Part shown: one piece after another, positions 5,583-28,662 of the stretch
Layout: each line of letters starts with the position of its first letter
Position numbering within the stretch: position 1 is the stretch's first letter
Assembly (NCBI GenBank): GCA_963726055.1
Contig: CAVSAP010000001.1
Location: 35,167 to 99,166 of the forward strand
Direction: 5' to 3'
Source: an uncultured Chloroflexia bacterium
GTDB taxonomy: Bacteria > Chloroflexota > Limnocylindria > Limnocylindrales > CSP1-4
DNA length: 64,000 nucleotides
The notes under the pieces: generated by a model
Databases searched by the model: none
Seen by the model: only the letters and a program-made list of their open reading frames with translations
Told to the model about the DNA's origin: nothing
Translations under genes and position numbers: made by a program

Positions 5583-5738
5583 CGTCACATCCTCCTGTCG
5601 CGTTCCGACATAGGAGTGTCGAGTGAAACCGGGCCGATGTGACAGACCACGTGCCCAGCAATCGACGCGAGCGACCAGACTGGCGCGAGGATCCGCAATG
5701 CCACCAGCGCGTCTGCTTGGTCGATGGCGGCCCGCGCT

Positions 5739-7220
5739 TCAGAACGGGAAGGGGTGGCTCCCGCTCTGAACAGTGACCCACTTGAGCTCTGTGAACTCCT
5801 CAAGCGCATGGACGCCCCCGAACCTGCCCCAGCCGCTGTCCTTGACGCCGCCGAACGGCATCTGTGGCTCGTCGCCGACGGTCTGGTCATTCACGTGGAC
5901 GATCCCGGCTTCGATCCGATTGGCCAGGGCGAGACCCTTGTCTGCGTCGGTGGTGATAATGCCGGCCGACAGGCCGTAGGAGGTTGCGTTGGCTCGCACG
6001 ACCGCCTCGTCCGCGTCGCCGACCACTTCGATCACGGCGACCGGTCCGAAGGTCTCGCGGCGGGCGAGCTCGCAGTCGTCCGGGACGTCGGCGACGAGGG
6101 TCGCCGCGTAGCACGGACCCTCGGACCTGCCGCCGGCGAGGAGCCGTGCGCCCCGGGCGACGGCATCGTCCACGCGGCGGGCCACGATGTCGAGCGCCTC
6201 CTGGTTGATGAGGGGCCCGATGACCACGTCCTGTTGCGCAGGGTCGCCCATCTTGAGACCCGCGACCTTCGCGGTCAGCTGCCTGGTGAACGCCTCCGCG
6301 ACCGGCGCCTCGACGATGACCCGGCGGGTCGACATGCAGATCTGGCCCTGGTGGAAGTAAGCCCCGAAGGCCGTCGCGTTGACGGCGTACTCGAGGTCGG
6401 CGTCGCGCAAGACGATGAGCGGGTTGTAGCCACCCAGCTCGAGGACCACACGCTTGAGGTTCCGGCCTGCTGCCTCCGCGATTCGACGGCCCGTTTCGCT
6501 CGAGCCGGTGAAGTTGATCCGCCGGACCTTCGGGTTCTCGGCAAATTCGTCGCCAATCCGGGAGCCGTCGCCCGGGGCGTGGGTCACGACGTTGAGCACG
6601 CCCGGCGGCAGCCCCGCCTCGGTGAAGATCTCGGCCCACAGGAGGCCGCCCACGAACGGCGACTCCTGGGACGGCTTGAGGACGACCGTGTTGCCGGCGA
6701 CCAGTGGCGCGGCGATGGAGCGGGCCGACAGGATCAGGGCCGCGTTCCACGGCGCGATGGCACCGACGACACCGACCGGCTGGCGGATACCCATTGCAAA
6801 CGTGCCGGGGTTGTCCGAAGGAACGACCTGACCAAGGGGCGCGTAGGCCAGACCCGCGGCCTGCCGGAACAGACCCGGCACAAAGCCCATCTGGAACATC
6901 CCGAGGCCGAAACCGCTACCGGTCTCTCGGGCCAGGAGCCCGACGACCTCGTCGCCTCGTCGCTCCAGGATATCGGCCGCCTTGAGGAACACCTGCTGGC
7001 GAGCTACAGGCGGGGATTTAGACCAGGCGGGAAAGGCCTCGGCGGCCGCATCGATGGCGCGCCGTGCATCCTCTCGTGAGCCCGCCGCGACCGTGGCCAG
7101 CACCTCGCCGGTATACGGGCTGCGATCCTCGAATGTGTCGCCACTCGCGGCGTCAACCCAGTCGCCGGCGATGAACTGGCGGTACTGCTGCTGGGCCGTC
7201 TCGATCGTGCCAGTGCTCAC
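5739..7220 (-). CDS. NAD(P)-dependent aromatic aldehyde dehydrogenase (vanillin/hydroxybenzaldehyde dehydrogenase-like)
   Basis: 'IAPWNAALILSARSIAAPLVAGNTVVLKPS', FTGS, LELGG, catalytic Cys in 'HQGQICMS', ETFGP, PFGGVKDSGWGR; GTG start with RBS GGAGTGGAG; pca context. Confidence 0.85.
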   Translation of the reverse strand: MSTGTIETAQQQYRQFIAGDWVDAASGDTFEDRSPYTGEVLATVAAGSREDARRAIDAAAEAFPAWSKSPPVARQQVFLKAADILERRGDEVVGLLARETGSGFGLGMFQMGFVPGLFRQAAGLAYAPLGQVVPSDNPGTFAMGIRQPVGVVGAIAPWNAALILSARSIAAPLVAGNTVVLKPSQESPFVGGLLWAEIFTEAGLPPGVLNVVTHAPGDGSRIGDEFAENPKVRRINFTGSSETGRRIAEAAGRNLKRVVLELGGYNPLIVLRDADLEYAVNATAFGAYFHQGQICMSTRRVIVEAPVAEAFTRQLTAKVAGLKMGDPAQQDVVIGPLINQEALDIVARRVDDAVARGARLLAGGRSEGPCYAATLVADVPDDCELARRETFGPVAVIEVVGDADEAVVRANATSYGLSAGIITTDADKGLALANRIEAGIVHVNDQTVGDEPQMPFGGVKDSGWGRFGGVHALEEFTELKWVTVQSGSHPFPF

Positions 7221-7319
7221 GGCTCCACTCCTTCGAACAGCCGCGAACCTCGCCGATCGGCGAGGCCGACAGCGCTTCGGGTCAACGTATGCACAGCCCG
7301 CAGGAGGCGCAAGAACTGT

Positions 7320-7361
7320 GTCCGCCCAGTGGACGTCAACGACACCGGCCACACAGTGGAC
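7320..7361. promoter_or_regulatory. two 15-bp palindromic operators (GTCCGC-cca-GTGGAC, GGCCAC-aca-GTGGAC), probable IclR sites
   Basis: At 7320-7334 and 7347-7361 in the divergent ALDH/ABC intergenic region; the same motif recurs at 14944-14958 and 15814-15828. Confidence 0.65.
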
Positions 7362-7422
7362 GCCGCCCGGGAATCACGAATCGACTCGTGGAACAATGCG
7401 GGCGTGTCTGCGCTGATGACCG

Positions 7423-8214
7423 GTGCCTGAGCTGAGCGGCGCTGGGCGGACCCGCCTCGTCCGAGGCCTGATCGGGCTGGCGGTGGTCGGGCTCGTCCTC
7501 GAAGCCATCACCCGGGCGGAGCTTGTCAACCCGACCTACCTGCCGCCGGCGTCGACCGTCCTGGTCACGTCCGGGCGGATCCTCCTCGATGCTGAGTTCC
7601 TGGCCGCCGTGGTGGCCACGTTGCAGGCGTGGGCGATCGGCATGCTCATCGCGATCGCTGTTGCGGTTCCGCTCGGGCTCGTTCTCGGCTCGTCGCGCAG
7701 GGCCTGGCTCGCCGGCACCGCGGCGATCGAGTTCCTCCGTCCGATCCCGTCGGTTGCGCTCATCCCGCTCGCGATCATCCTGTGGGGGACGGGGCCCGAC
7801 ATGACAGTCCGGCTGATCGTGTACGCGGCCGCCTGGCCGATCATGCTGAACACGATCTACGGCATCCGCGAGGTCGATCCGATCGCCAAGGACACGGCTC
7901 GCGCGTTCGGCTACAGCCGGCTCAAGGTGCTCTGGAGCGTCTCGTTGCGAAGCGCCTCGCCCTTCATCTACACCGGCTTCCGGATCGCCGCGGCGATCGC
8001 CCTCATCGTCGCGATCAGCACGGAGCTGATCGCCGGCGGGTCCGACGGCATCGGGACGTGGATGCTTGTCCGGTCGCAGTCCGGGACGGATCGGGAATTC
8101 GTCTACGCCGGCACGGTCATCGCCGGGCTGCTCGGGCTCGCGATCAATGCGCTCATGGTCCTGGGGGAACGGCGTTTCTTCTTCTGGCACCAGCGCCTGA
8201 GGATCGTCCGATGA
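7423..8214 (+). CDS. ABC transporter permease (NitT/TauT/SsuC family)
   Basis: 'IEFLRPIPSVALIPLAIILWG', EAA loop 'DTARAFGYSRLKVLWSVSLRSASPFIYTGFR'. Confidence 0.9.
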   Translation: MPELSGAGRTRLVRGLIGLAVVGLVLEAITRAELVNPTYLPPASTVLVTSGRILLDAEFLAAVVATLQAWAIGMLIAIAVAVPLGLVLGSSRRAWLAGTAAIEFLRPIPSVALIPLAIILWGTGPDMTVRLIVYAAAWPIMLNTIYGIREVDPIAKDTARAFGYSRLKVLWSVSLRSASPFIYTGFRIAAAIALIVAISTELIAGGSDGIGTWMLVRSQSGTDREFVYAGTVIAGLLGLAINALMVLGERRFFFWHQRLRIVR

Positions 8215-9053
8215 CCGGGCGAGCAGCGCGGCTGGTCGAACCGTCCTCGGCCCGACGGACGCGAGCCTCGGACGTGACCGGCCTGCTCGGCGCGATCGGG
8301 CTTCGGCTGAGCGTCCTGGTCGGACTCATCGTCGTCTGGCAGGTCCTGACCTCCTTTACCGATTCACCGTTCTTCCCGACCTTCGCCGAGGCCGTCAGTC
8401 GTCTCTGGACCAACTGGCTGACCAACCCCGCCGTCATCGGCGGGCATCTCGTTCCCAGCCTCCTGCGCCTCCTGACCGGCTGGCTGGCCGCGGTCGCCCT
8501 CGGGATCACGGTAGGAACCCTCATGGGCCTGTCCACCCGGCTGCACGACTATCTCGACCCCATCGCCCAGTTCCTGCGGGCCATCCCACCGCCGGCCCTG
8601 TTGCCACTGTTCATCGTGCTGCTCGGCATTGGCGACCTGATGAAGGTGACGATGATCCTGTTCGGCGTGATCTGGCCGATCATCCTCAACACGATCGATG
8701 GCGTCCGCTCGGTCGACTCGCTCCATCTCGACACAGCCCGGGTGTACGGCGTCAGCCGGGCGGATGTCCTGTTCCGCGTGATCCTGCCTTCAGCCGGACC
8801 GAAGATCTTCGCCGGGCTGCGGGTCAGCCTGTCGATCGCCGTCATCCTCATGGTGATCTCCGAGATGGTCGCGACCATCAACGGGATCGGGTTCACGCTC
8901 GTCCAGGCGCAGCGCAACTTCCGGACGCTCGACGTTTGGGCCGGCATCCTGATGCTCGGGCTGATCGGCTACGGCCTCAACCTGGTGCTGACGCTCGTCG
9001 AGCGGCGGGCACTGCGCTGGCAGCGCGGCGCCTACCGCCTGAGCGATCAGTGA
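8211..9053 (+). CDS. ABC transporter permease (NitT/TauT/SsuC family)
   Basis: 'QFLRAIPPPALLPLFIVLLGIG', 'DTARVYGVSRADVLFRVILPSAGPKIFAGLR'; ATGA overlap with the previous gene. Confidence 0.9.
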   Translation: MTGRAARLVEPSSARRTRASDVTGLLGAIGLRLSVLVGLIVVWQVLTSFTDSPFFPTFAEAVSRLWTNWLTNPAVIGGHLVPSLLRLLTGWLAAVALGITVGTLMGLSTRLHDYLDPIAQFLRAIPPPALLPLFIVLLGIGDLMKVTMILFGVIWPIILNTIDGVRSVDSLHLDTARVYGVSRADVLFRVILPSAGPKIFAGLRVSLSIAVILMVISEMVATINGIGFTLVQAQRNFRTLDVWAGILMLGLIGYGLNLVLTLVERRALRWQRGAYRLSDQ

Positions 9054-9070
9054 GGACCGGCGAGCGGACG

Positions 9071-9892
9071 ATGAGCGAGCCCCTCCTCGAGGTCCGCGGG
9101 CTGCGGCACGTCTACGGGTCGGCCGACTCGGCTTTCGTCGCGCTGGACGACCTCTCGTTCACTGCCGCCGAGGGCGAGCTGATCACGATCGTCGGTCCGT
9201 CCGGCGGCGGCAAGACGACCCTGTTGAGGTGCCTGTCCGGGCTGATGCCGCCGACCGGTGGCGAGGTCCGGCTGCGGGGCCGATCCTTCACGGACGTGCC
9301 CGACGAGCTCGCCCTCGTCTTCCAGGAGTACAGCCGCTCGCTCTTTCCCTGGCTGTCGGTCCGCGGCAACGTCGACATGCCGTTGCGGAACCTGCACCTG
9401 GATCAAGGCGAACGAACGGAGCGAATCACCGCCTCGCTGGCGGAGGTGGGCCTGGCCGATGCCGCCAACCGCTATCCGTGGCAGCTGTCCGGCGGCATGC
9501 AGCAGCGCGTGGCCATCGCCCGCGCGCTCGCCTACCGGCCGGCGATCCTGTTGATGGACGAGCCGTTCGCCTCGGTCGACGCCCAGACCCGGGCAGACCT
9601 CCAGGACACGCTGCTCGACGTCTGGCGCCGCCACGACAGCACGATCCTGTTCGTCACCCATGACATCGACGAAAGCGTGTACCTTGCCGACCGGGTCGTC
9701 GTCCTGTCCCGGGCCCCGGCGCGCGTGGTCGCCGAGATCGTGATCGACCTGCCCCGGCCGCGCGACCAGATCGCGACGAAAGAGCTGCCCCGATTCGTCG
9801 AGCTTCGAGCCGAGGTCGCCAGGCTCATCCGGCGGCCGGTGGCAGATGCCGAGGACCGCGTGGAGCAGGGTGCGGAGGAGCCGCCGTCGTGA
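9071..9892 (+). CDS. ABC transporter ATP-binding protein (NitT/TauT family)
   Basis: Walker A GPSGGGKTT, signature LSGGMQQR, Walker B LLMDEPF, H-loop VTHDIDE. Confidence 0.95.
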   Translation: MSEPLLEVRGLRHVYGSADSAFVALDDLSFTAAEGELITIVGPSGGGKTTLLRCLSGLMPPTGGEVRLRGRSFTDVPDELALVFQEYSRSLFPWLSVRGNVDMPLRNLHLDQGERTERITASLAEVGLADAANRYPWQLSGGMQQRVAIARALAYRPAILLMDEPFASVDAQTRADLQDTLLDVWRRHDSTILFVTHDIDESVYLADRVVVLSRAPARVVAEIVIDLPRPRDQIATKELPRFVELRAEVARLIRRPVADAEDRVEQGAEEPPS

Positions 9893-9902
9893 GGTCGCCG
9901 AG

Positions 9903-10445
9903 ATGAACTCCCAACGCACGCCGTCGCAGACGATCGGACCGTTCTTCGCCGTCGCGATGCCCAGGCCGGGCGAGGAATTCGTCGTGCCTGCCGGGCGAGC
10001 GGATGGCTTCTGGCTGCGGGGCCGGGTGACAGACGGCGCCGGCGATCCGGTGCCCGACGCCATGATCGAGACGTGGCAGGCGGACCCCGAGGGACGGTTC
10101 CCCGGCGACGCCGACTCGTCGTTCCGAGGTCTCGGTCGCGCCGCGTCCGACACTGATGGCCGGTATGCCATCTTCACCCTCAAGCCCGGCCGGGTGCCCG
10201 ATGCCGCCGGCGCCATGCAGGCCCCCCACATCGATGTCTCGGTCTTCGCTCGTGGACTCCTGAATCATCTCGTCAGCAGGGTGTACTTCGCGGACGAAGC
10301 GGAGGCGAACGCGAGCGACCCCGTTCTTGTCCTGGTCGCCGACCCGCGAGCCCGTGCCACACTGGTCGCCGAACGATCGGAGGATGGATACATCTTCGAC
10401 ATCCGGCTCCAGGGCGATGGCGAGACCGCCTTCTTCGAGCTCTGA
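9903..10445 (+). CDS. pcaG: protocatechuate 3,4-dioxygenase alpha subunit
   Basis: 'TPSQTIGPFF', 'IETWQADPEGRF', 'QAPHIDVSVFARGLL', 'YIFDIRLQGDGETAFF'. Confidence 0.92.
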   Translation: MNSQRTPSQTIGPFFAVAMPRPGEEFVVPAGRADGFWLRGRVTDGAGDPVPDAMIETWQADPEGRFPGDADSSFRGLGRAASDTDGRYAIFTLKPGRVPDAAGAMQAPHIDVSVFARGLLNHLVSRVYFADEAEANASDPVLVLVADPRARATLVAERSEDGYIFDIRLQGDGETAFFEL

Positions 10446-11796
10446 CGCGGTGGGTGGCGGCCTGTTCGGCCAAGTCCTCGGGCGGGGACCGGTGGCCGCG
10501 GCGACATCTGACGCGTCCTGGTTGGCGGCCATGCTCGAGGTCGAGGCGGCCCTCGCCCTCGCCCAGGCCCGTGTCGGCATGATCTCGACGGCGGACGCCG
10601 AAGCCATCGAGCGCGCCTGCAGGTCGTCCTCGTTCGACATCGAGCTCCTCGGCAGCGAGGCCACAGCGGCCGGCAACCCGATCGTTCCGCTGGTGCGGCA
10701 CCTGCGGGAAGCGGTCGGCGGGGCGGCCGCAGACCAGGTCCACCGCGGGGCAACGAGCCAGGACATTCTCGACACCGCGACGATGCTGGTCGCCCGCCAG
10801 TCGGTTGACGCGCTCCTCGTCGACCTGAGGCTGGCCGGCGACGCCGCGTCGCGACTGGCCGTCGAGCATCGGGACACCGTCATGGCCGCCCGGACCCTCC
10901 TGCAGCAGGCACTGCCGACGACTTTCGGCCTGAAGGCGGCTGGCTGGCTGACCGGCCTCGACGAAGCCGAGGATGGCCTACGCCGCGTCCGCGACGGTCG
11001 CTTCGCGGTTCAGCTTGGCGGGGCCGGTGGCACGCTGGCCGCGTTCGGCCCCGACGGCCCGGCTGTCGTTGCCGCGTTCGCCGCCCAGCTCGACCTCGCG
11101 GAACCGGCACTCCCGTGGCACACCCAGCGAGGGCGAATCGCGGAACTCGCCTCGGCCCTGGGGGTGACGGCCGGCGCTGCCGCCAAGCCGGCCCTCGACA
11201 TCGTGCTGCTCGCGCAATCGGAGGTGGGCGAGGTCCGCGAAGGCGATCCGGCTCGCGGCGGCTCCTCCTCGTTGCCGAACAAGAGAAACCCGATTGCAGC
11301 CGTCTCCGCCCGGGCTGCCGCGGCCCAGGCGCCCGGCCTGGTCGCGACGCTGCTGGCGGCCATGGCCCAGGAGCACGAACGCGCCGCGGGCGCGTGGCAC
11401 GCCGAGTGGTTGCCCCTGCGGAGCCTGCTTGTGACAGTCGGCTCGGCCGTCGCCTGGCTCGCCGACGCGCTCACCGGGCTCGAGGTCGACCCCGTCGCTA
11501 TGAACTCGAACGTTGCCCTCGGCGGCGGCGCGCTCATGGGCGAGCGGGTCGCCGCGGAGCTCTCATCGGTGCTCGGCCGCGATGCCGCCGGCGCGCTCGT
11601 CGCGGCCGTCTCCCGATCGGCCGCCGACGACGCTGTCCCATTCGAGCTCGCGCTCAGAAACCGGCTCGCGGAGTCGCCCGAGCTCGCAGGCTTCGACGTC
11701 GCGCGAATGCTGGATCCGAGCGGCTACCTGGGCAGCGCGGGCCTTCTCGTCGATCGGGCCGTCGCCGCCCATGCCGGGCTCGAAAAGCGCCGATGA
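10417..11796 (+). CDS. pcaB: 3-carboxy-cis,cis-muconate cycloisomerase
   Basis: Fumarase/aspartase superfamily: 'VHRGATSQDILDTA', 'TLLQQALPTTFGLK', 'GGSSSLPNKRNP', 'QEHERAAGAWHAEW'. Start uncertain (10417 or 10450). Confidence 0.9.
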   Translation: MARPPSSSSDAVGGGLFGQVLGRGPVAAATSDASWLAAMLEVEAALALAQARVGMISTADAEAIERACRSSSFDIELLGSEATAAGNPIVPLVRHLREAVGGAAADQVHRGATSQDILDTATMLVARQSVDALLVDLRLAGDAASRLAVEHRDTVMAARTLLQQALPTTFGLKAAGWLTGLDEAEDGLRRVRDGRFAVQLGGAGGTLAAFGPDGPAVVAAFAAQLDLAEPALPWHTQRGRIAELASALGVTAGAAAKPALDIVLLAQSEVGEVREGDPARGGSSSLPNKRNPIAAVSARAAAAQAPGLVATLLAAMAQEHERAAGAWHAEWLPLRSLLVTVGSAVAWLADALTGLEVDPVAMNSNVALGGGALMGERVAAELSSVLGRDAAGALVAAVSRSAADDAVPFELALRNRLAESPELAGFDVARMLDPSGYLGSAGLLVDRAVAAHAGLEKRR

Positions 11797-12575
11797 GCGA
11801 TCCCGTCGAGGTCCACCACCTGACCGAGGGGCCGCCCGACGCCCCGGTCCTGATCCTCGCTCATGCAATCGGCACGTCGTTGGCGATGTGGCAACCGCAG
11901 GTTGAGGCACTGTCCCGCGACTTCCGCGTCGTCAGCTATGACCAGCGGGGCCACGGCGAGTCCCCCGTCCCGGCAGGGCCGTACGAGATTGCAGACCTCG
12001 GCCGCGACCTGCTCCATCTCATGGACCGCCTGGGTGTGGAGCGAGCCTCGCTGTGCGGCCTGTCCCTCGGGGGGATGACCGTCCTGTGGGTCGCCGCCCA
12101 CGCGCCGGATCGCGTCGAGCGGCTCATCGGCTGCTGCGTCACCGCCCGCCCGGCCTCGCCGGAGGCCTGGGCCGAGCGGGCCGCCACCGTGCGACGCGAC
12201 GGGATCGGCGCCATCGAGGAGCTCGTCATTGATCGGTGGGGCTACCGCGAGCGAAGCCCCCGCGTCGAGGCCCTCGTCCGGGCGGAGCTGCTGGCGACTC
12301 CGCCCGCGGGCTATGCGGCGTGTTGCGAGGCGATCAGGACAATGGACCTGGAGCCGGATCTGGGATCGATCACGGCTCCGACGCTGCTCATCGCCGCGGC
12401 CAATGATCCGGCCGCCCCACCAGCGGCAATGGCGACGGTCGCCGACGCGATCGCGGACTGCGCGCTGAAGGTGGTGGACGATGCGGCTCACCTCGTCAAC
12501 GTCGAGCAACCGGAGGCGGTGACGGCCGCCATCAGGGAGCACCTGGCTCCAGTCTTCGCGGGGAGGCGAGCATGA
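11793..12575 (+). CDS. pcaD: 3-oxoadipate enol-lactonase
   Basis: alpha/beta hydrolase, 'GTSLAMWQPQ', 'YDQRGHGESP', nucleophile motif GLSLGG, 'AHLVNVEQP'. Confidence 0.9.
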   Translation: MSDPVEVHHLTEGPPDAPVLILAHAIGTSLAMWQPQVEALSRDFRVVSYDQRGHGESPVPAGPYEIADLGRDLLHLMDRLGVERASLCGLSLGGMTVLWVAAHAPDRVERLIGCCVTARPASPEAWAERAATVRRDGIGAIEELVIDRWGYRERSPRVEALVRAELLATPPAGYAACCEAIRTMDLEPDLGSITAPTLLIAAANDPAAPPAAMATVADAIADCALKVVDDAAHLVNVEQPEAVTAAIREHLAPVFAGRRA

Positions 12576-12997
12576 CCGACGAGCGCTACGAGACGGGCAT
12601 GAGAATCAGGCGGGAGGTGCTCGGCGACGAGCATGTCGACCGGGCGATGGCGACGACCACGCCGTTCACGGCGCCGTTCCAGGAGTTCATCACCCGCGCG
12701 GCCTGGGGTGACGTCTGGAGCCGCCCCGGTCTCGACCGTCGGACGCGCTCGTGCATCACGCTTGCGGTGCTGACGGCGCTGCGGGCGGAGGGCGAGATCG
12801 CGATGCACGTCAGGGCCGCGCTACGCAACGGCCTCTCGACCGACGAGATCGCCGAGGTTCTCCTTCACGTCGCGGCGTACGCGGGGGTTCCCGCGGCCAA
12901 CGCGGCCTTCGCCGTTGCGGCGCGGACCATCGCCGAAGTGGACGGCTCCGCTGGCGACGGCGCCGCCAACGAGGGCCCCGGGTCAGTCGAAGGGTAG
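12572..12997 (+). CDS. pcaC: 4-carboxymuconolactone decarboxylase
   Basis: 'RREVLGDEHVDRA...FQEFITRAAWGDVWSRPGLDRRTRSCITLAVL...AAYAGVPAAN'. Confidence 0.93.
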   Translation: MTDERYETGMRIRREVLGDEHVDRAMATTTPFTAPFQEFITRAAWGDVWSRPGLDRRTRSCITLAVLTALRAEGEIAMHVRAALRNGLSTDEIAEVLLHVAAYAGVPAANAAFAVAARTIAEVDGSAGDGAANEGPGSVEG

Positions 12998-14158
12998 CCC
13001 GACGTAGTTCTCCGCCAGGCTCCTGGCCGCGGTCTCTGAGCTCGTCACGTACCGCAGCCGGGCACGCTGCAGGCGGGCGATGAACGGGTCGCCGGGGAGG
13101 CGATGCAGCATCAGGCTCATGTAGTTCGAGAAGTCCTGGGCACGCCACACGCGGGTCAGGCAGTCAGCCGAGTAGCGATCCATCAGGGAGGTCGACCCCG
13201 ATCGGTACCACTCGGACAGGGCGAGCGCCAGGAGACGAACATCGGCCACGGCCAGGTTGAGGCCCTTGGCTCCCGTCGCCGGAACGATATGCGCCGCGTC
13301 GCCGGCGAGGAACAGCCGGCCGTACTGCATGGGCTCGACGACGAAGCTGCGCATCGTGGCGATGCCCTTCTCGACGACCGGGCCGTCCCGGAGTTGCCAG
13401 CCGTCGTCGGTCGCGAAGCGGGTCCGTAGCTCGTCCCAGATACGATCGTCAGTCCATCGCTCGATGTCCTCGGTCGGGTCGACCTGGAGGTACAGCCGGC
13501 TGACCGACGGCGATCGCAGGCTGTGGAGCGCAAAGCCCCGCTCGTGGTAGGCGTAGATCAGCTCGTCCGTGGACGGGGCGACCGAGGCGAGGATGCCGAG
13601 CCAGGCAAAGGGGTATTCGTGGTCGTACTCGGTCAGCACGCCTGGCGGGATCGACCCGCGAGAAACCCCGTGGAAGCCGTCGCAGCCGGCGATGACGTCG
13701 CACTGGATCGCGTGTTCGGTGCCGTCCAGGCGATATCGGATCAGGGGATCCTCCGTGTCGATTGCCTCAAGTCGGACGTCGTCGACCTCGAAGGCGATGA
13801 CGCCCCCCGAAGCGAGGCGAGCCGAAATGAGGTCCTTCACGACCTCCTGCTGGCCGTAGATGGTGATCGACCGACCGCTGAGGTCGGTGAGGGCGATCCG
13901 GTGTCCCCGGCCGTCGAAGCGGAGCTCGATCCCGTGATGGACCAGGCCCTCGCGCTTCAGCCGCTCGTCCAGGCCGGTCTCGCAGAGGAGGTCCACCGTG
14001 CCCTGCTCGAGGACGCCCGCCCGGACGCGGTGCTCGACATAGTCGCGCGAACGATCCTCCAGGACGATCGAATCGATTCCTTCGCGCGCGAGCAGATGTG
14101 ACAGGAGGAGCCCGGCCGGGCCGGCCCCGACGATACCGACCTGGGTCCGGGTCGTCAT
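12983..14158 (-). CDS. pobA: 4-hydroxybenzoate 3-monooxygenase
   Basis: 'TQVGIVGAGPAGLLL', 'RAGVLEQGTVDLL', 'YGRLFLAGDAAHIVPATGAKGLNLA', 'LAENYVGLP'. Confidence 0.95.
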   Translation of the reverse strand: MTTRTQVGIVGAGPAGLLLSHLLAREGIDSIVLEDRSRDYVEHRVRAGVLEQGTVDLLCETGLDERLKREGLVHHGIELRFDGRGHRIALTDLSGRSITIYGQQEVVKDLISARLASGGVIAFEVDDVRLEAIDTEDPLIRYRLDGTEHAIQCDVIAGCDGFHGVSRGSIPPGVLTEYDHEYPFAWLGILASVAPSTDELIYAYHERGFALHSLRSPSVSRLYLQVDPTEDIERWTDDRIWDELRTRFATDDGWQLRDGPVVEKGIATMRSFVVEPMQYGRLFLAGDAAHIVPATGAKGLNLAVADVRLLALALSEWYRSGSTSLMDRYSADCLTRVWRAQDFSNYMSLMLHRLPGDPFIARLQRARLRYVTSSETAARSLAENYVGLPFD

Positions 14159-14200
14159 CGAGGCCCGGGCGAGTGCCCGCGGACCGCTCGCGCAGTCGCC

Positions 14201-14899
14201 TCAGTCCTCATGGTCGGGGCGCTCGAACGGTGTGGCGTGATCGCCGCGAAGGACGATGTCGAATCGGAACGCGAGCGCCCATTCCGGTTCGGTGTGCTCG
14301 AGATCGAACCGGGCGATGAGACGTTCCCGGGCCATCGGATCGGGCACCGAGTTGAAGATCGGGTCCTGGCCGAACAGCGGGTCGCCCGGGAAGTACATCT
14401 GCGTGACGAGCCGGTCAATGAACTGCCGACCGAACAGCGAGAAGTGGATGTGGGCCGGTCGCCACGCATTCGGGTGGTTCCGCCAGGGGTACGCACCGGG
14501 CCGAATGGTCAGGAATCGAAAGCCACCGTCGTTGTCCGTCGTCACTCGACCGAACCCCGAGAAGTTCGGGTCGAGTGGAGCAGGGTGGTCGTCGATCTCG
14601 TGGCGGTAGCGCCCCGCCGCATTCGCCTGCCAGACCTCCACGAGCGAGTCCCGCACCGGTCGGCCGCCGCTGTCGCTGACGGTACCGAAGACGATGATCC
14701 GCTCGCCCAGCGGACTCCCCTCGTGCTGGCGCGTGAGATCGGCATCGGCCGGGTCCACTCGTCCCTCGCCAAGGACGGGTCCGCTGAGCTCGGTCAGGCC
14801 GCGCGGAAGCGGAACGAGCGGTCGCAGTGGCGCGCGCAGACGCGTGGTCTCGTAGGCGGGGGAGTGATAAGGCGGATCGATGTTCGCTCGATCGGTCAT
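14201..14899 (-). CDS. pcaH: protocatechuate 3,4-dioxygenase beta subunit
   Basis: 'WQANAAGRYRH', 'PGAYPWRNHPNAWRPAHIHFSLFG' (Fe ligands Tyr/His), 'TQMYFPGDPL'. Confidence 0.95.
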   Translation of the reverse strand: MTDRANIDPPYHSPAYETTRLRAPLRPLVPLPRGLTELSGPVLGEGRVDPADADLTRQHEGSPLGERIIVFGTVSDSGGRPVRDSLVEVWQANAAGRYRHEIDDHPAPLDPNFSGFGRVTTDNDGGFRFLTIRPGAYPWRNHPNAWRPAHIHFSLFGRQFIDRLVTQMYFPGDPLFGQDPIFNSVPDPMARERLIARFDLEHTEPEWALAFRFDIVLRGDHATPFERPDHED

Positions 14900-15795
14900 C
14901 GTGGCCGATTGTGCCGCGCGACATGGCCGTCAACCAGCCGATCGTCCACTGATCGGACGATTAGCGGTCGGAGCTGATCACGGCCGGTCGCCTCGGCCGA
15001 AGCCGGCACCGCCGGTGCCACGCGGGCCGGCACGTCCCAGTGCTCGGCGACGCGTCGTGAGAGGCCGCGTGCCACGGTCGTGACCAGCGGCGCCAGGCGA
15101 CTGACGTCGGCGCCGTGGGAGTCGACGACGAGGGAGATAGCGCCCACCACCTCGTCGTCCGGCCCGCGGATCGGCGCGCCAACCGACACGGTCCGGAGCG
15201 ACATCTCATCGCGGGTGGCGGAGTAGCCGGCCCGTCGGGTCTCGGCCAGGTTGCGACGAAGCTCGTCGGGATCGGTGATCGTGAAGGCTGTCAGCCGCTC
15301 CAGCCCTCGGGCGATGACCTCATCGATGAACGCGGGGGGTCCCATGGCGAGCAGCACCTTGCCGACGCCCGTCGCGTGGAGAGGCAGGCGTCCCCCGACC
15401 CGCGTAACGATCGGAACGGAGTTGGCGCCCCGGATCCGCTCGACAATGAGCGCGTCGTGACCATCGAGCACAGCGAGCTGGACGTTCTCATGCGTCGTCT
15501 CGTACAGATCCTGCATGAACGGAATGGCCAGTTCCCGAAGCGCGGCGCGGTGGGCCGTCAGCGTCCCGAGTTCCCAAAGAAAGGGACCGATGCGGTACAT
15601 GCCCCCGTCCGTCATCTCGAGAGCGCCGTGCTGACGCAGCTCGGTTGCGAGGCGGTGGACGGTCGTCATCGGCAGACCTGTTCGGCGCGCGAGCTGGGCC
15701 CTGGTCAAGCCGGTCTCGGCGGATCGGAGGGCCCTCAGGATCGCGAACGACTTACTGAGGACCGATCGACCCGGCTGACCATTCCTGCCACTCAT
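14896..15795 (-). CDS. IclR family transcriptional regulator (PcaR/PobR-like)
   Basis: HTH 'LTRAQLARRTGLPMTTVHRLA', 'GGRLPLHATGVGKVLLA', 'RRAGYS...SVGAPI'; leaderless start 6 nt after TATGCT. The C-terminal tail may be over-extended. Confidence 0.9.
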   Translation of the reverse strand: MSGRNGQPGRSVLSKSFAILRALRSAETGLTRAQLARRTGLPMTTVHRLATELRQHGALEMTDGGMYRIGPFLWELGTLTAHRAALRELAIPFMQDLYETTHENVQLAVLDGHDALIVERIRGANSVPIVTRVGGRLPLHATGVGKVLLAMGPPAFIDEVIARGLERLTAFTITDPDELRRNLAETRRAGYSATRDEMSLRTVSVGAPIRGPDDEVVGAISLVVDSHGADVSRLAPLVTTVARGLSRRVAEHWDVPARVAPAVPASAEATGRDQLRPLIVRSVDDRLVDGHVARHNRPR

Positions 15796-15813
15796 GGCGG
15801 GAGCATAACTGTC

Positions 15814-15828
15814 GTCCGCTGAGTGGAT
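15814..15828. promoter_or_regulatory. palindromic operator GTCCGC-tga-GTGGAT between divergent iclR and the metE-like gene
   Basis: Same motif as 7320-7334. Confidence 0.6.
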
Positions 15829-15903
15829 TCTCCCGTCGACCGGTCGTCCGAGTTGGCATACCCTACCGCCACTCATCTGAGGCGGTCGACATGAGGTCCC
15901 TCG

Positions 15904-17016
15904 ATGGCTCCACCTGCCAAGACGAGGCTCGCATACCGGGCGGAGGTCGTGGGCAGCCTGCTCCGGCCGGACTACCTCAAGCGGGCCTTCGAGGACTTCG
16001 ACCAGGGCCGGATCAACAAGGACGAGCTCACCTCGGTTCAGGACAAGGCGGCCCTCGAGGCGATCCGGCTCCAGGAGGCCAGCGGCCTCGACGTCATCAC
16101 CGACGGTGAGGTGCGGCGGCGGTTCTGGTTCGACCCGCTGACCGCGAGCCTCGGCTACAACTACGAGGAATCAGCGCCGGTCCCGTTCAAGGGCGGCGGC
16201 AAGGTTCCGGAGGAGGCGCCGCCCAAGCTGCCGGTTGTCACCGAGCGCCTGGGGATCGTCGAGAATCTTCCGCTCCGCGAATACACGTTCGTCCGGGAGC
16301 ACTCCGCGACGCCGACGAAGTCCACGATCGCCGGGATGACCTATGCCAGCGTCCTCTGGGTGCCGGGCAAGTCGGACGGCTCGTACCGGGATCGCGACGA
16401 ATACATGGCTCACGTCCTCCAGCTGATGAAGGAGGTCCTTCGCGAGGCCATCGACGCCGGCAGCAACTACATTCAGCTGGATTCGCCGAGATACACGCAC
16501 ATGGTCAGCGACGAGGGCCAGGCCAACCTCAAGAAGGTCGGCCTCGACGTCGGGACCTGGCTCGACACGATGATCGCGTTCGACAACGAGCTGATCAACG
16601 CGTTCCCGGAGGTCACCTTCGCGGTCCACCTCTGTCGCGGGAACCACCGCAGCATGTGGTCGGTCGAGGGCGGCTATGACGCGATCGCTGACAAGCTCTT
16701 TAACGACCTCGCGGTCGATCGGATCCTGGCCGAGTACGACTCGCCGCGAGCTGGCTCGTTCGCCCCGCTGCGTCTGGTCCCGAAGGACAAGGTTGTCGTC
16801 CTCGGCCTGATTACGACCAAGGAACCGGAGCTCGAGGACGCAGAGCAGCTGAAGCGCCGGATCGACGAGGCGTCGACGTACCTTCCCATCGAGCAGCTCG
16901 GGCTGAGCCCGCAATGCGGCTTTGCCTCGACCCTGCCGGGCAACCTTGTGACCTATGAGGACCAACGAGCCAAGCTCGAGCTCGTCGCTCGGGTGGCTCG
17001 CGACGTGTGGGGATAG
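15904..17016 (+). CDS. cobalamin-independent methionine synthase II family protein (catalytic-barrel only, YxjG/H-like)
   Basis: 'AEVVGSLLRP', 'TDGEVRR', Zn ligands in 'VHLCRGN', 'LAEYD' and 'SPQCGFAS'; 370 aa with no N-terminal folate-binding barrel. Confidence 0.85.
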   Translation: MAPPAKTRLAYRAEVVGSLLRPDYLKRAFEDFDQGRINKDELTSVQDKAALEAIRLQEASGLDVITDGEVRRRFWFDPLTASLGYNYEESAPVPFKGGGKVPEEAPPKLPVVTERLGIVENLPLREYTFVREHSATPTKSTIAGMTYASVLWVPGKSDGSYRDRDEYMAHVLQLMKEVLREAIDAGSNYIQLDSPRYTHMVSDEGQANLKKVGLDVGTWLDTMIAFDNELINAFPEVTFAVHLCRGNHRSMWSVEGGYDAIADKLFNDLAVDRILAEYDSPRAGSFAPLRLVPKDKVVVLGLITTKEPELEDAEQLKRRIDEASTYLPIEQLGLSPQCGFASTLPGNLVTYEDQRAKLELVARVARDVWG

Positions 17017-17054
17017 CGCACATCGGCGGTTGGGCCGATACGGGAGGAGCTGTC

Positions 17055-18137
17055 ATGACAGGCAAGATGTGCTCGAGGAGCATCGGGATCGACTCGCGGC
17101 GATCCGGTCCGCGAACCTGGTTCTCTTTCGTCGTTGTCGTCGGCTTGATCGTTGCCGCCTGCGGTGGCGCCCAGGCCACTCCCAGCCCGGCCGCCTCCGC
17201 CCTGCCGAGCGCGGCCGCAAGTACCTCCGCGGCCCCCAGCGAGTCGCCAAGCGCATCGCCGGCCGGGTCGCCGGAGACCTCGACGATCCAGCTCGGCCTG
17301 TTGCCGCTGGCGGACGTCGCGCCTGTGCATCTCGCCATCGAGGAAGGCTTCTTCGAGGACGAAGGCCTGACGATCGAGATCGTGCCCGTCCAGGGCGGCG
17401 CCGCGGCGATCCCTGCCCTGGTCAACGGCGATCTCGACATCACGTTTGGGAACTACGTGTCGTTCTTCCTCGCCAGCAGCTCCGGCATCGATCTTCGGAT
17501 CATCGCTGAGCAGAACCGCGCTACGCCGGGCTTCAGTTTGATCATGACGCTGCCGGATTCCGGGATCGCGGGCCCGGCGGACCTGGTCGGCAAGAAGCTC
17601 GCAGTCAACACGCTATCAAACGTGGCCGAGATCACCTCCCGCGCACAGATCAAGGATGCCGGCGCTGACCCGAGCGCAGTCGAGTACACGGAGATCCCGT
17701 TCCCGGACATGATCGCGGCCCTCGAACAGGGCAGCGTCGACGCGATCTTCGCGGTCGAGCCGTTCGCGACCCTGGCCAAGCAGCAGCTCCAGGCCGTCGA
17801 AGTGGTCGATCCCTACGGGGGCCGACTCGCGGGCTTCCCGGTGGCCGGCTTCCAGGCCACCACCGAGTTCGCCGAGCAGAACCCGAACACCGTCGCCGCG
17901 TTCCAGCGGGCGATGATCAAGGCTTCGGCTCTCGCGGCCGATTCGCCGGAGAGCGTCGTCGCGATCCTGCCGACGTACACCACTCTCACGCCGGAGTTGG
18001 CGGGCACGATCGCCCAGCCGCTCTACGTGTCGGAGATAGACCTCGACGAGCTCCAGAGGGTCGTCGACCTCATGGTCGAGTTTGAGGTGCTCGACGCCGC
18101 CCCGGACTTGAGCAGCCTGGTGATCCCGACTCCCTGA
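17055..18137 (+). CDS. ABC substrate-binding lipoprotein (NMT1/SsuA/TauA family)
   Basis: Lipobox IVAAC, Pro/Ser/Ala stalk, 'LAIEEGFFEDEGL', 'DLVGKKLAVN', 'FPDMIAALEQGSVDA'. Confidence 0.9.
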   Translation: MTGKMCSRSIGIDSRRSGPRTWFSFVVVVGLIVAACGGAQATPSPAASALPSAAASTSAAPSESPSASPAGSPETSTIQLGLLPLADVAPVHLAIEEGFFEDEGLTIEIVPVQGGAAAIPALVNGDLDITFGNYVSFFLASSSGIDLRIIAEQNRATPGFSLIMTLPDSGIAGPADLVGKKLAVNTLSNVAEITSRAQIKDAGADPSAVEYTEIPFPDMIAALEQGSVDAIFAVEPFATLAKQQLQAVEVVDPYGGRLAGFPVAGFQATTEFAEQNPNTVAAFQRAMIKASALAADSPESVVAILPTYTTLTPELAGTIAQPLYVSEIDLDELQRVVDLMVEFEVLDAAPDLSSLVIPTP

Positions 18138-18168
18138 TCGCCACCGCAGCCGCAACTGATCGGGAGCC

Positions 18169-18657
18169 CTACGGGTCGCGAGTCCCCGATGTCCGCGACG
18201 CATCTGTGCCGAAGCCACTCCGGCCACTGCGCGCCTCCAAGGGTTCGAGCTCCTGAAAGAGGGTGATCTGGAGACCGGCCGGCGCAGACAGTCTGGAGTT
18301 CAGCGACCGCCACGGCGTCTCGATCGGAGCCGCGATGAGCTGCGCGCCGGCCGATACGAGATCGTCGGTCGTCGCCGCGCCGTCGGCGACCTCGAATGCG
18401 ACGCGAATCTTCGGGGCTACGTCGCGGCCGACTTCGACCGCATCGATCATCCGTTTCTGGGCTGGATTGGCGATTTCGAGCGTAGCGCGCCCCGCCTCGA
18501 GGATCGCGACGCGAGCATCGCCCTCGCCCTCGAACGCGGCCTGTTCGGGCAGGCCAAGCACGTCCCGGTAGAAGCGGACGGCCTCCTCGTAGTCCTCGGC
18601 CTCGACGACGACGCGCATCTGGATCACGGTCGGACGGGTCGTTGGGTTCGAGGTCAT
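18169..18657 (-). CDS. VOC/glyoxalase family protein
   Basis: 'EDYEEAVRFYRDVLGL', 'RVAFEVAD', 'TPWRSLNSRLSAPAGLQITLFQ'; leaderless TACCGT-N6-ATG. Confidence 0.85.
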   Translation of the reverse strand: MTSNPTTRPTVIQMRVVVEAEDYEEAVRFYRDVLGLPEQAAFEGEGDARVAILEAGRATLEIANPAQKRMIDAVEVGRDVAPKIRVAFEVADGAATTDDLVSAGAQLIAAPIETPWRSLNSRLSAPAGLQITLFQELEPLEARSGRSGFGTDASRTSGTRDP

Positions 18658-18904
18658 CGACAAACGGTAGCAGTCGCACCGGGGAGGCTTCCGCTGAAAG
18701 TGGGATAGGGTGTTCCCATCGCCGACAGCGAGGTCCGCGAGAACTTCGGCGCTCCCCAGCCGGTATCTGTAGTCAGGGTGGTCGACCCGTCGCGCCACGA
18801 GCGGCGCCGGAACTGTCGAACCCCTGCGAGCGATTCAGCCGACCGGCGGCGCGGCTCCTTCGCGAGCCCGCCGCAATCTGCCGTGTGGAGGACCCTCAGG
18901 GCCA

Positions 18905-21900
18905 GTGCGACTAGCCACCCTCTTGCGGGACGTCGCCCGCCGCAGCCGGGCGGACTGGCCCGTCGTGCTCGGCGCGTGGCTCCTCCTCCTGTGTGCGACG
19001 ACCGTGCTGGCCGCGGGTGCCCTGTACGCCGATGTGGTGGCGGTCGGCGGCCTGCGACGAGCGGTTGACCAGGCGCGGCCCGCCGACCGGAACGCGCTCG
19101 TCTGGACGACCGTCGGCGCTGACTTCGATCGGGTCGATGCCGCGGTGTCGGTCGCGCTGGCATCCGTCGTCGTGCCGAACGGAGGCGAGATCAGCCGTGT
19201 CGTTCGGGACAGCTGGCTCACCCCGTCCGGGGTCGGGGACACCGGTGCGACCGTCTCCGGTCTCGCGGGTCACGAACACTTGTCACAACACGCCGACCTC
19301 GTGGCCGGCCGATGGCCCGAGCCGGGCCGCGATCCGATCGAGGCATCGTTACCCGTTGCGCTCGCAGCCGCCCTGGGCCTGGAACCGGGCGACCGCGTCC
19401 GGATGGCCGATCAACGCAACCCCGATCGGACCGTCGATCTGGTCGTGACCGCGATCTGGCAGCCCATTGCCGCCGACCCGTACTGGCAGAGCGTCGGCGG
19501 CGACGAGGCCGCTGAGCTTGCCGCGGGCAGGTCACCCATCGTGGTGACGCTCCAGGATGCCCGTTCCGTGAACGAGGGCCGACCGCTCACCGTCGAGTGG
19601 CGAGTTCTCCCGTCCGCCGACGGCCTGGTGCTCGACGACCTCACTGCCCTGCGTCTCGACCTCGAGACACTCCACGCGCGGGTCGCGTCAGCCGACCGGG
19701 GTCAGACCTTCACGGTCCGGACCACGTTACCGGCCCTGCTGGCCGAAACGGAACGTGCGGTGCTCGTGAGTCGCGGTGGGGTTCTCTTGCTGGTCGGCCA
19801 GTTCGCGATCCTCGCCGCCTACGCCATCGCACTCGTGGCCGGGATCCTGCTCGACCGTCGTCGCAGCGGCAACGGGCTCCTCGAGGCTCGCGGCGCCGGC
19901 AGCTCGCAGATCGGGGCGCTCGCGCTCGGCGAGGCACTGTTGCTCGCAATCCCGACGATCGTGATCGCGCCCTTCCTGGGCTACGCCATCGTCCAGGCAC
20001 TCGGCGCTTCCGGGCCGCTGGCCGGGTCTGGGATCGCATCGAGCGTCCCGATCGGCGGCACCGCGCTCGTGGCATCCGTCGTCGCGGCCGGCGCAGGAGT
20101 CATCGGGCTGACGATCCCGGCGATGCTGCCAGGAAAGGCACCATCGAGGATCCGGGCGACCTTCGCCCGCCAGGGCTCCCAGACCCTCGCACAGCGGCTG
20201 GGCATCGACCTGGCACTTGTCGTCCTGGCCGCGATCGGCCTGTGGCAGATGCAGCTGTACGGTGCGCCGCTCAGCCGTGATATTCGAGGGACGCTCGGGA
20301 TTGACCCATTCCTGATCGCTGCCCCGGCGATCGGCCTCCTCGCCGGAGGAATCCTCGCCGTCCGCGTGCTGCCCCGTCTTGCGGACGCGGCCCAGGTAAT
20401 CGCAGTCCGGCGTCCAGGCCTCGTCCTTCCGCTCGGAGCACGCCAGGTGGCCCGACGACCGCTGCGCTACACGCGCTCCGCCCTCCTCGTGATGCTTGCA
20501 GTCGCACTCGGCACCTTCGCAGCGGTCTACGCCGCGACATGGTCCCGCTCCCAGGCGGATCAGGCGGCCTACCAGGCTGCCAGCGACGTGCGAGTCATCG
20601 GCGGGGACGACACGCGGCTGCCCGGCTGGGCACCCGGCGCGGCCTATCGAGCGATCCCGGGAGTCGAGCGGGTCACCGGCGTCACCCGCGAACCCGTCGA
20701 CGTGGGGCGCTCCTTCCGGGGCGGCGAGATCGTCGGCCTCGACGCCGACGCCGCGAGCGCCATGTTGACGCTCGGACCGGTTTCGCCATCCCGGTCCTGG
20801 GCCGACCTGGCGGCCGATCTGCGGAACGCCCGTCCAGCCACGGGTGCGCCGTTGCCGGTCGGCGTCCGGCGACTGGCGTTGACGCTCGACACGAGCCTGG
20901 AGGCGCCGCCAGACGCGGCCGCACCAGTGCCTGGGACGACCCGCACGATCCGGGCCGCTGCCCTGGTCCTCGACACTGACGGCCGGATCGCGCGGCTTGA
21001 TGGCGGCGACGCCGCGATCGCCGCGGACGGCCAGCGGGTCGAAGTCGACATTCCTGCATCGGTCGGAGGCTCGGCTGTCGACCTGGGCGAACTGCGGCTG
21101 CTCGGAGTCGAGATCATCGCCGGTGCCACCGGAACCAGCACGCTTGTTGGATCGATCGATCTACAGGCGATCGAAACGAGCCTCGACGAGCAGGGGACCG
21201 CCTGGACGACGATCATCGACCCAGGCGCCGAGGGCTGGTCCTGGGCGTCGATCGTCGCCAGTCAGCTGTCGCCATACCTGCCGCCAGAGGGTCAGCCGGG
21301 GCGGCTCGACATCGGCGGGCCGACGCTGCCACCGGTCGGCGGAGCTCCGGGCGCGACATCGACCTACCGTTTCTGGCTGGCCCCGGACGTGCCGGAGGCG
21401 ATGCCGGCGATCGCGGGGAGCACGTTCGCGGCCGCCGCGGGCGTCGTGATCGGCGATCGCCTGAACGCGACCGTCAGCGGCCAGGCCATCACGGTGGACA
21501 TCGTCGGCACCGTCGGTGCGCTGTCGCCGTTCGATCCGACGAAGCCCTTCATCGTCGTCGATGCCGCGACGCTCGAGACGGGTCGCTTCGCGGCGACCGG
21601 CCTGACGATCCGCACGGACGAATGGTGGCTGGCCGTGGCGGACGGCAGTTCCGCCGCGGTGCTCGATCAGGTGCGGGCCCAGCCCTATCGACCCGACATG
21701 ATCCTGGCCCGGGAAGAGCTCGCCGTTGCTGCATCGACTGACCCATTGGGCCTTGGCGTCGTTGGCGCGCTCATCCTCGGTGCGTTGGCCGCGATCGTCG
21801 TGGGCACGATCGGCTTCGTCGTGAGTGCGACGGTGTCCACGAGCGAGCGGTTCGATGAATTCGCGATCCTTCGGGCACTCGGACTCTCCTCGCGCCAGCT

Positions 21901-28055: not shown

Positions 28056-28119
28056 GGCCCGGAGCCAGGGCCCGGCGCCCGCGTTTCGCACGCGAGGTGG
28101 GCCGACGTTAGCGGGGAGG

Positions 28120-28662
28120 ATGCTGGTGGGACGGATGTGGACGAGGGGACTCCTCGCCGGCCTGCTGGCGGGCGTCCTCTTCGGCTGCGACATGGGCCCG
28201 CCCAAGATTCCCATCCCGCCAGGGAGCCAGGTCGTTCATGTCGTGATCACCGAGTCAGCGGTGCGCCTGATCCCAGGGACGGTGCGCGCCGGGGACGTCT
28301 ACCTGGTGCTCGACGCGCCCCTGGGCGGCTCGTTCCAGTTCGTCCAGCGGAAACGCGCCGCCGACGAGGCGGAAGGTCCCTTGAGCGACGATGACCTCGA
28401 GCGGCTCGCGCACGGCGATACGGAAGGAACGAGCATCGGGGGCCTGGATTCCGGTGGATGCGCCCCGGACCAGGATGCCGCGAGTCGCGGGATGATGGGC
28501 CCGTGCGGGAACGTCATGAAGGCGACGGTGACCGCTGGGAAATACGCGATCCTCGGACCGGGCTGGACCGAGCAGGAGACGGAGCCGAGCGTTGATCCGA
28601 CCGCCGACCCCGCCGGGTTCGTCCCGCCCCCGTTCATGGGCGTCCTCGAGGTCCTGCCGTGA
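28120..28662 (+). CDS. hypothetical lipoprotein
   Basis: RBS GGGGAGG; signal 'WTRGLLAGLLAGVLFGC'; beta-rich body. The ORF track fuses it to ftsZ only because of the frameshift. Confidence 0.7.
   Translation: MLVGRMWTRGLLAGLLAGVLFGCDMGPPKIPIPPGSQVVHVVITESAVRLIPGTVRAGDVYLVLDAPLGGSFQFVQRKRAADEAEGPLSDDDLERLAHGDTEGTSIGGLDSGGCAPDQDAASRGMMGPCGNVMKATVTAGKYAILGPGWTEQETEPSVDPTADPAGFVPPPFMGVLEVLP

Follow-up and report, generated by a model that had tools for sequence, protein, structure and literature searches.

A MetE-like zinc protein kept beside 4-hydroxybenzoate and protocatechuate genes in uncultured soil bacteria: a candidate aryl O-demethylase

The stretch of DNA analyzed here (64,000 nucleotides of contig CAVSAP010000001.1 from an uncultured Chloroflexia bacterium; hereafter the window) encodes a MetE-like protein of 370 residues, P0001, whose gene is kept beside genes for the breakdown of 4-hydroxybenzoate (pob) and protocatechuate (pca) in about 40 uncultured soil bacteria. 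We tentatively propose that P0001, of the single-barrel MetE superfamily (YxjG/YxjH-like, PRK06520-like), acts as a zinc-dependent S-methyltransferase and that it moves the methyl group of a methoxy-aromatic compound to homocysteine within a pob/pca funnel. As an apparent MetE-family thiol methyltransferase it has a fair chance of belonging to a new class of O-demethylases. Donor, acceptor and direction of transfer are what we infer from the fold, ligand residues, gene linkage and type of regulator set out below.

The MetE-like protein and its linkage to pob and pca genes

The reading frame is uninterrupted, and its GC content at third codon positions (GC3, 0.88) is typical for genuine genes of this window, which has 68.6% GC. 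Pfam places residues 16-342 in PF01717 (Meth_synt_2, of the URO-D/CIMS clan; E 1e-10, 41.9 bits, cut-off 21). The match to PF08267 (Meth_synt_1) is only a weak echo of 90 residues within this one barrel, and the protein therefore lacks the N-terminal folate barrel. The AlphaFold2 model is a single (beta/alpha)8 barrel (pLDDT 91, pTM 0.91) whose top Foldseek matches are 1YPX (E 4e-20), the MetE of Thermotoga maritima, and 3RPD. Pfam, alignments and model thus agree with the original prediction, made from the DNA alone, of a 370-residue single-barrel MetE-family protein that has the zinc ligands and no folate-binding N-domain.

Alignment to T. maritima MetE and 1YPX puts the zinc ligands at H242-x-C244, E277 and C338, all of them invariant among 34 aligned homologs that reach down to 37% identity. 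The metal site is intact by its ligand residues, and zinc binding is predicted. In the same comparison the positions contacting the carboxylate and amino groups of homocysteine are G17-S18, G68-E69 and D193. They align with S411, E462 and D577 of T. maritima MetE (the Ser of I-G-S, the Glu of H-G-E and the Asp of I-D-E-P), which we take to be its homocysteine contacts. S18 and D193 are invariant in the 34 homologs, and E69 is replaced by Asp in a few distant ones. The T. maritima alignment, which spans residues 15-251, also pairs W152 with the pterin-stacking Trp of that enzyme and H199 with E583, its folate-contact Glu.

A family search with P0001 gave more than 8000 matches, annotated throughout as methionine synthase II. 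The close relatives (57-89% identity) are all from uncultured soil Actinomycetota, Solirubrobacterales and Chloroflexota. We collected 64 relative loci, mapped the proteins of the window onto them, and built a maximum-likelihood tree that includes 1YPX (loci are labeled L###, and genomes G###, with G000 being the genome of the window). P0001 belongs to a clade of 44 sequences (SH-aLRT 94) from soil metagenome-assembled genomes (MAGs) of Actinomycetota and Chloroflexota. Forty of the 44 copies lie within 6 kb of pobA, of an aromatic aldehyde dehydrogenase (ALDH) gene or of both, and for most of them pca genes are found within 10 kb. The linkage to aromatic genes, on which the original prediction depended, is real: the pobA, ALDH and pca neighbors are retained in two phyla, in no fewer than five different gene orders.

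These orders differ considerably. In most Actinomycetes-type MAGs, ALDH-pobA-MetE-like faces a PcaR/PcaU/PobR regulator gene and is backed by pcaCDBGH. The genes pobA and MetE-like overlap by 4 bp in L007, pcaHGBDC-ALDH-MetE-like-pobA forms a single string in L013, and ALDH-MetE-like faces pobA in L017. In L004 and L008, ALDH-pobA-MetE-like is followed by genes for a substrate-binding protein (SBP), two permeases and an ATPase. The 21 Solirubrobacterales loci read GntR-MetE-like-(218-residue GcvT-fold protein)-MFS-pobA and are flanked by cou-like side-chain genes. Finally, the window and L003 have in common pobA-pcaH-iclR facing MetE-like-SBP. The ALDHs of the linked loci are of the vanillin/4-hydroxybenzaldehyde dehydrogenase type, and in L006 and L019 the ALDH is linked with no pobA nearby. 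Among the four tested genomes with unlinked clade copies, three have pobA elsewhere and the fourth, the fragmented MAG of L019, gave no match. Copies of the sister clade (from Chloroflexota, with 57-62% identity) show no linkage to pobA, which is absent from all five sister genomes. More distant MetE-like homologs sit in varied catabolic operons, in acyl-CoA dehydrogenase/hydratase, TRAP and TauD contexts.

Certain features of these loci are of note. In every Solirubrobacterales locus the 218-residue protein, which has a GcvT folate-binding-type domain and no other, starts 1 nt past the MetE-like stop codon (e.g. L028:11109-11765); it is of the size of SoxG (sarcosine oxidase gamma), is weakly similar to SoxG and GcvT, and could be a partner subunit of the MetE-like enzyme. 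The small open reading frames behind the gene in L006 and L007 (78-79 residues) are not homologous to each other. In L063, L067, L069 and L071, from long-read MAGs, the operon is the same and the MetE-like and pobA frames are in pieces, probably through assembly indels rather than decay. The sister-clade copies L087 and L089, from genomes without pobA, adjoin genes for NMT1/SsuA-type binding proteins, and one of them adjoins a TauE sulfite exporter gene; the enzyme and the binding protein may have been paired before the link to pobA arose.

To which described family does P0001 belong? It scores 257.4 bits with NF005085 (PRK06520, cut-off 313) and 222.5 bits with NF004875 (PRK06233, the YxjG/YxjH equivalog, cut-off 576) and, because both scores fall short, is related to both families and a member of neither. 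The best match in sequence (E 3e-59) as in fold is 1YPX, a YxjG/YxjH-type 'putative B12-independent methionine synthase' from Listeria. Like that type, P0001 is a single barrel of about 370 residues with the same zinc ligands, homocysteine contacts and H-x-C-R-G-N-x-R-S-x-W...G-G-Y loop. Unlike it, P0001 (only about 40% identical) has loops of its own clade at D77-P78-L79, Y147-P154, P195-R196 and H199, and its gene has iclR, pobA, pca and ABC binding protein genes as neighbors and no Met T-box or S-box. With the C-terminal barrel of canonical MetE (EC 2.1.1.14) it shares the fold, the zinc site, the Ser/Glu/Asp homocysteine set and an aromatic residue at the pterin-stacking position. However, the canonical enzyme has about 750 residues and its N-terminal barrel, is about 16% identical, keeps the folate-contact Glu that P0001 has replaced, and lacks an 11-residue insertion that P0001 carries after the H-x-C motif. 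Residues specific to the clade together with its sister clade lie in loops after the barrel strands (the four segments just named plus M251 and S253-E255); these positions, derived from sequence alignment, are candidates for donor binding.

MesA to MesD are single-barrel, folate-independent MetE relatives with non-folate methyl donors; MesA, MesB and MesC take the methyl group from corrinoid proteins in anaerobes, and MesD needs DUF1852 (MesX) and O2 (Price et al. 2021, PMC7857596). The Pfam-scanned neighbors in the window include no corrinoid protein and none of the alkene or coenzyme M (CoM) genes that form the context of XecA. No DUF1852 was found among the scanned neighbors in the window or in L003-L007, and identification of P0001 as a MesD was rejected for lack of this partner among them. 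With the NCBIfam models of archaeal core synthases P0001 scores 16-93 bits (cut-offs 258-406), and its sequence match to 3RPD is weak (E 1.5e-5). The phylogenetic placement that the original prediction called for, against MesA-D, YxjG/YxjH and XecA, is thus given by the tree for 1YPX, which lies far outside the 44-member clade, and for MesA-D by NCBIfam scores as proxies only.

A proposed route for aromatic methyl groups and its alternatives

The intact zinc and homocysteine sites argue that P0001 alkylates homocysteine, and the simplest donor that would tie it to the pathway is an aromatic methoxy group. Transfer of an aryl O-methyl group to a thiol, as the original prediction suggested, would fit the anatomy of the protein. 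In the route we propose, the ABC importer and the aromatic ALDH would supply a methoxylated benzoate. Our first candidate is vanillate, and 4-methoxybenzoate, isovanillate or a methyl ester could take its place; 4-methoxybenzoate would be just as consistent with the close link to pobA. Homocysteine, bound by S18, E69 and D193, would be deprotonated at the Zn(His,Cys,Glu,Cys) site, and the thiolate would attack the O-methyl carbon in an SN2 reaction. Residues of the clade loops (R196, Y197, H199, W152 and the R245-W252 loop) might hold the substrate by its carboxylate and ring and donate a proton to the departing phenolate. The reaction would yield methionine and either protocatechuate or 4-hydroxybenzoate, the latter then being hydroxylated by PobA, with entry to PcaHG-PcaBCD. 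ALDH, PobA and the MetE-like enzyme would in this way form a funnel for the C6-C1 products of H- and G-type lignin that converges on protocatechuate, ALDH acting on 4-hydroxybenzaldehyde and vanillin, PobA on 4-hydroxybenzoate and the MetE-like demethylase on vanillate, and the MetE-like gene would take the position where vanAB or ligM usually stand. In Solirubrobacterales the enzyme may act together with the small GcvT-fold partner.

The chemistry has precedents. Thiolates are standard reagents for cleaving aryl methyl ethers, LigM removes aryl methyl groups by a cofactor-free SN2 reaction, and the beta-etherases LigE and LigF of lignin catabolism cleave an aryl ether through attack by a thiolate on its alkyl carbon. 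LigE and LigF are mechanistic analogues only, unlike P0001 in having the glutathione S-transferase fold, in using glutathione and no zinc, and in cleaving beta-aryl rather than methyl ethers. LigM and DesA, which depend on tetrahydrofolate (THF) and have the GcvT fold, fill the slot proposed for P0001 (vanillate to protocatechuate), and both they and the proposed enzyme would transfer the methyl group by an oxygen-independent SN2 reaction with neither a metal-oxo nor a corrinoid cofactor. They differ from P0001 in their unrelated fold and in their acceptor, N5 of THF and not a thiol, and LigM co-occurs with the MetE-like gene in some relatives.

Aryl O-demethylation is recognized as a step that limits the conversion of lignin by microbes. 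The aerobic enzymes known for it (the Rieske enzyme VanAB, the P450s GcoA and PbdA, and the THF-dependent LigM and DesA) consume reductant and O2, produce toxic formaldehyde, or sequester folate. If the proposal is true, a zinc enzyme handing the methyl group to a thiol would add a fourth route with little need for cofactors, and there would be a direct carbon link from lignin methoxyl groups to the methionine and S-adenosylmethionine (SAM) pool in abundant uncultured soil bacteria: soil Actinomycetota and Chloroflexota would make methionine from the methoxyls while the ring went to the beta-ketoadipate pathway. The large 'methionine synthase II' family would also have its first donor. The wider claim, that the whole clade is a structurally new class of aryl O-demethylase (a MetE-fold zinc enzyme that passes the methoxy methyl of lignin acids to homocysteine and needs no O2, folate, corrinoid or reductant), is possible but more doubtful than the claim for P0001 itself.

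Are other demethylases present? The original prediction noted the lack of VanAB and LigM, and a whole-genome search of G000 (85% complete) indeed found neither LigM nor a VanA_C domain. Of the 30 genomes carrying the gene, 26 lack LigM and 18 lack VanA_C, and most Actinomycetes-group MAGs with the gene have neither LigM nor VanA. For some relatives the statement does not hold, and several observations weigh against the proposed route. In all eight Solirubrobacterales genomes the contig with the MetE-like gene also has VanA or LigM, at a distance of 7-45 kb. The closest ortholog, that of L003 (89% identical), is in an operon MetE-like-SBP-LigM, with a score of 662 bits for the LigM (cut-off 580). 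Cytochrome P450 genes occur in 12 of 12 genomes tested, including two in G000, outside the window, and a 'pathway hole' for a demethylase is therefore not proven; the argument from a missing demethylase is weaker than stated and only partly true. The active-site loops of the clade differ only subtly from those of the sister clade, which lives without pobA. All sequences come from MAGs, and many loci are closely related, with a single lineage accounting for the 21 from Solirubrobacterales. In the literature no methyl donor has been demonstrated for the clade or the wider YxjG/YxjH family, and we found no publication linking core-MetE/YxjH proteins to pob, pca or van genes. Lastly, a rough estimate from textbook cell composition puts the demand for methionine and SAM at a few percent of the aromatic flux for growth. 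Methionine being stoichiometric and the demand small, P0001 could not be the sole demethylase for growth on vanillate without a recycling route; unless methionine is recycled, it probably carries little flux and harvests methyl groups instead of performing all catabolic demethylation.

Part of this evidence bears on another possibility, namely that the protein is a methyl-salvage methionine synthase that leaves the aromatic ring alone, uses 5-methyl-THF (or another one-carbon (C1) carrier) from a separate LigM-type O-demethylase, regenerates THF and stores the methoxy carbon in methionine. The L003 operon would suit such a role, as would the location of the gene 6 kb from a PurU-MetF-LigM module in L032 and L088, the GcvT-fold protein directly behind it in Solirubrobacterales, W152 at the pterin-stacking position, and the roughly nine GCV_T genes of G000. 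We nevertheless judge it unlikely: LigM is found in only 4 of the 30 genomes, G000 not among them, P0001 has no N-terminal folate barrel and has H199 for the folate-contact Glu, and where LigM occurs MetF and PurU already recycle folate. Nor would salvage explain why the gene is closely tied to pobA and not to a demethylase. Should the donor be 5-methyl-THF, the conserved presence of a methionine synthase in pob/pca operons would still be a new kind of coupling, both in regulation and in metabolism. A different zinc-thiolate or Lewis-acid chemistry on an aromatic intermediate is distinctly unlikely. A thiol could be added to an electrophile, be it an epoxide, a quinone or a quinone methide, in the manner of epoxyalkane:CoM transferase, or a non-methyl alkyl group could be transferred so as to free 4-hydroxybenzaldehyde or 4-hydroxybenzoate. 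The fold does house non-methyl chemistry, in epoxyalkane:CoM transferase and in uroporphyrinogen decarboxylase (URO-D). Moreover, the ALDH link is as tight as that to pobA (L006 and L019 have the ALDH only), and distant homologs occur in varied catabolic operons. But the triad that binds the amino-acid part of homocysteine is kept family-wide, with Asp for E69 in a few distant members, and the ALDH-PobA-PcaHG route has no obvious electrophilic intermediate. In Firmicutes, yxjH shares an operon with luxS, which makes homocysteine, and in lactobacilli yxjH-luxS is governed by a Met T-box (PMC6004538), which also speaks against such chemistry.

That P0001 serves as an ordinary back-up for methionine synthesis, independent of B12 and with a generic donor, its place among pob/pca genes reflecting hitch-hiking or co-regulation, is very unlikely. 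G000 has no PF08267 (canonical MetE) gene and the Actinomycetes-group MAGs also lack canonical MetE, so that a B12-independent enzyme would be useful, and methionine synthase II is the annotation that the family carries everywhere. However, the linkage has outlasted at least five rearrangements in two phyla, and the Solirubrobacterales carry a canonical MetE besides the MetE-like gene. The 24 congeners that lack the gene still need methionine synthesis, and pobA occurs in almost all clade genomes tested and in none of the sister clade. No Rfam match was found in positions 5000-19500 of the window at E up to 1, and hence no Met/SAM riboswitch and no T-box; the regulators are of the PobR/PcaR or GntR type. 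The MetE-like gene is thus not an ordinary methionine synthase gene by its context. A housekeeping role was rejected as the principal reading in view of the two MetH-size genes of G000, the MetE of Solirubrobacterales, the lack of a riboswitch and the IclR/PobR/GntR-type regulators.

Other genes for methyl-group metabolism were noted. The two MetH-size genes of G000 (S-methyl_trans, open frames of 1181 and 1282 residues) lie in paralogous modules outside the window (C1:222545-227877 and C4:18865-24238), each with a GCV_T gene of 439-459 residues about 4 kb away. This genome also has another core-MetE paralog (28% identical), and the MetH/GCV_T modules suggest an extensive methyl-group metabolism. 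In seven of the eight Solirubrobacterales genomes (G053-G060) canonical metE is about 15-30 kb from the MetE-like gene, and the neighborhood of metE, MetE-like and VanA/LigM genes looks like one large aromatic/C1 island.

Neighboring genes, control region and origin of the island

The features around the gene are listed in Table 1. The original prediction had the gene co-oriented with that of an aromatic binding protein: the co-orientation stands, and 'aromatic' comes from the gene context only. Its vanillin-dehydrogenase-like ALDH is borne out by the nearest structures.

Table 1. Features of the island in the window
Feature	Position	Strand	Basis or remark
Aromatic aldehyde dehydrogenase (ALDH)	5739..7352	-	Nearest structures vanillin dehydrogenase 9IHB, salicylaldehyde dehydrogenase and 4-hydroxybenzaldehyde dehydrogenase; true start probably downstream of 7352
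ABC permease, NitT/TauT family (BPD_transp_1)	7423..8214	+	Pfam/NCBIfam
Second ABC permease	8211..9053	+	39% identical to first permease
ABC ATPase, NitT/TauT family	9050..9892	+	Pfam/NCBIfam
pcaG, protocatechuate 3,4-dioxygenase alpha subunit	9903..10445	+	Start uncertain, 9846-9903
pcaB, 3-carboxy-cis,cis-muconate cycloisomerase (Lyase_1)	10450..11796	+	Start uncertain, 10384-10450
pcaD-like alpha/beta hydrolase	11793..12575	+	3-Oxoadipate enol-lactonase position
pcaC, carboxymuconolactone decarboxylase	12572..12997	+	Pfam
pobA, 4-hydroxybenzoate 3-monooxygenase	12983..14158	-	PRK08243, 596 bits, cut-off 351
pcaH, protocatechuate 3,4-dioxygenase beta subunit	14201..14899	-	Pfam
IclR-family regulator	14896..15795	-	Weak match to PcaR/PcaU/PobR subfamily; start probably ATG 15795 (longest open reading frame reaches 15876)
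Divergent control region, iclR/MetE-like gene	15796..15903		108 bp, ~95% identical to L003 (closest relative)
MetE-like single-barrel Zn/homocysteine-type methyltransferase (predicted), P0001	15904..17016	+	370 residues; Pfam, NCBIfam, alignments, AlphaFold2 fold
SsuA/TauA/NMT1-family ABC substrate-binding lipoprotein (SBP)	17055..18137	+	Lipobox VAAC; start probable, alternative GTG 17007

The spacer between iclR and the MetE-like gene contains a perfect 10-bp palindrome, CGACCGGTCG, at 15837-15846, which is an operator candidate. The IclR-type operator that had been placed ahead of the gene thus has a divergent iclR, a conserved spacer and a palindrome to its credit, and its role as operator is that of a candidate only. 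A promoter/terminator scan found none, including no sigma-70-like promoter in 15796-15903. The divergent regulator of the Actinomycetes-type operons is a true member of the PcaR/PcaU/PobR subfamily (326 bits against a cut-off of 284.75), and the Solirubrobacterales loci have a GntR-type regulator gene ahead of the MetE-like gene.

How did the island reach this genome? No MetE-like ortholog was found in 24 genomes of the same genus and no pobA in 25. Since pobA and the MetE-like gene are jointly absent from congeners, the island is present or absent as a block, and it probably came in as one. In the tree the copy of the window is nested among Actinomycetota sequences, though the genome is Chloroflexota-like, with an FtsZ nearest to a named Limnocylindrales protein. 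Base composition gives no foreign signal (68.8% GC in the island, 69.1% in the genome), and a transfer would find its support only in the patchy distribution and the tree, not in composition.

Although pcaH and pcaG are usually side by side, they are split in the window: pcaG is in the ABC-pcaBDC operon, and pcaH lies 4 kb away on the opposite strand with iclR and pobA, a layout also seen in L003. The genes of the NitT/TauT-type transporter are split as well, those for the permeases and the ATPase at 7423-9892 and that for the SBP at 17055-18137. Behind the SBP gene of L003 (L003:10854-12564) come ligM, for a vanillate/3-O-methylgallate O-demethylase, and then an IS481-type transposase fragment; in the window a VOC/glyoxalase gene (18169-18798, minus strand) occupies the place of ligM. 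Further downstream, the open reading frame of ftsZ (26713-28662) encodes 649 residues, of which homologs of about 430-450 residues cover only some 63%, and its true start is probably far downstream of the one listed. This gene is preceded by genes for two FtsX-type permeases and two ABC ATPases.

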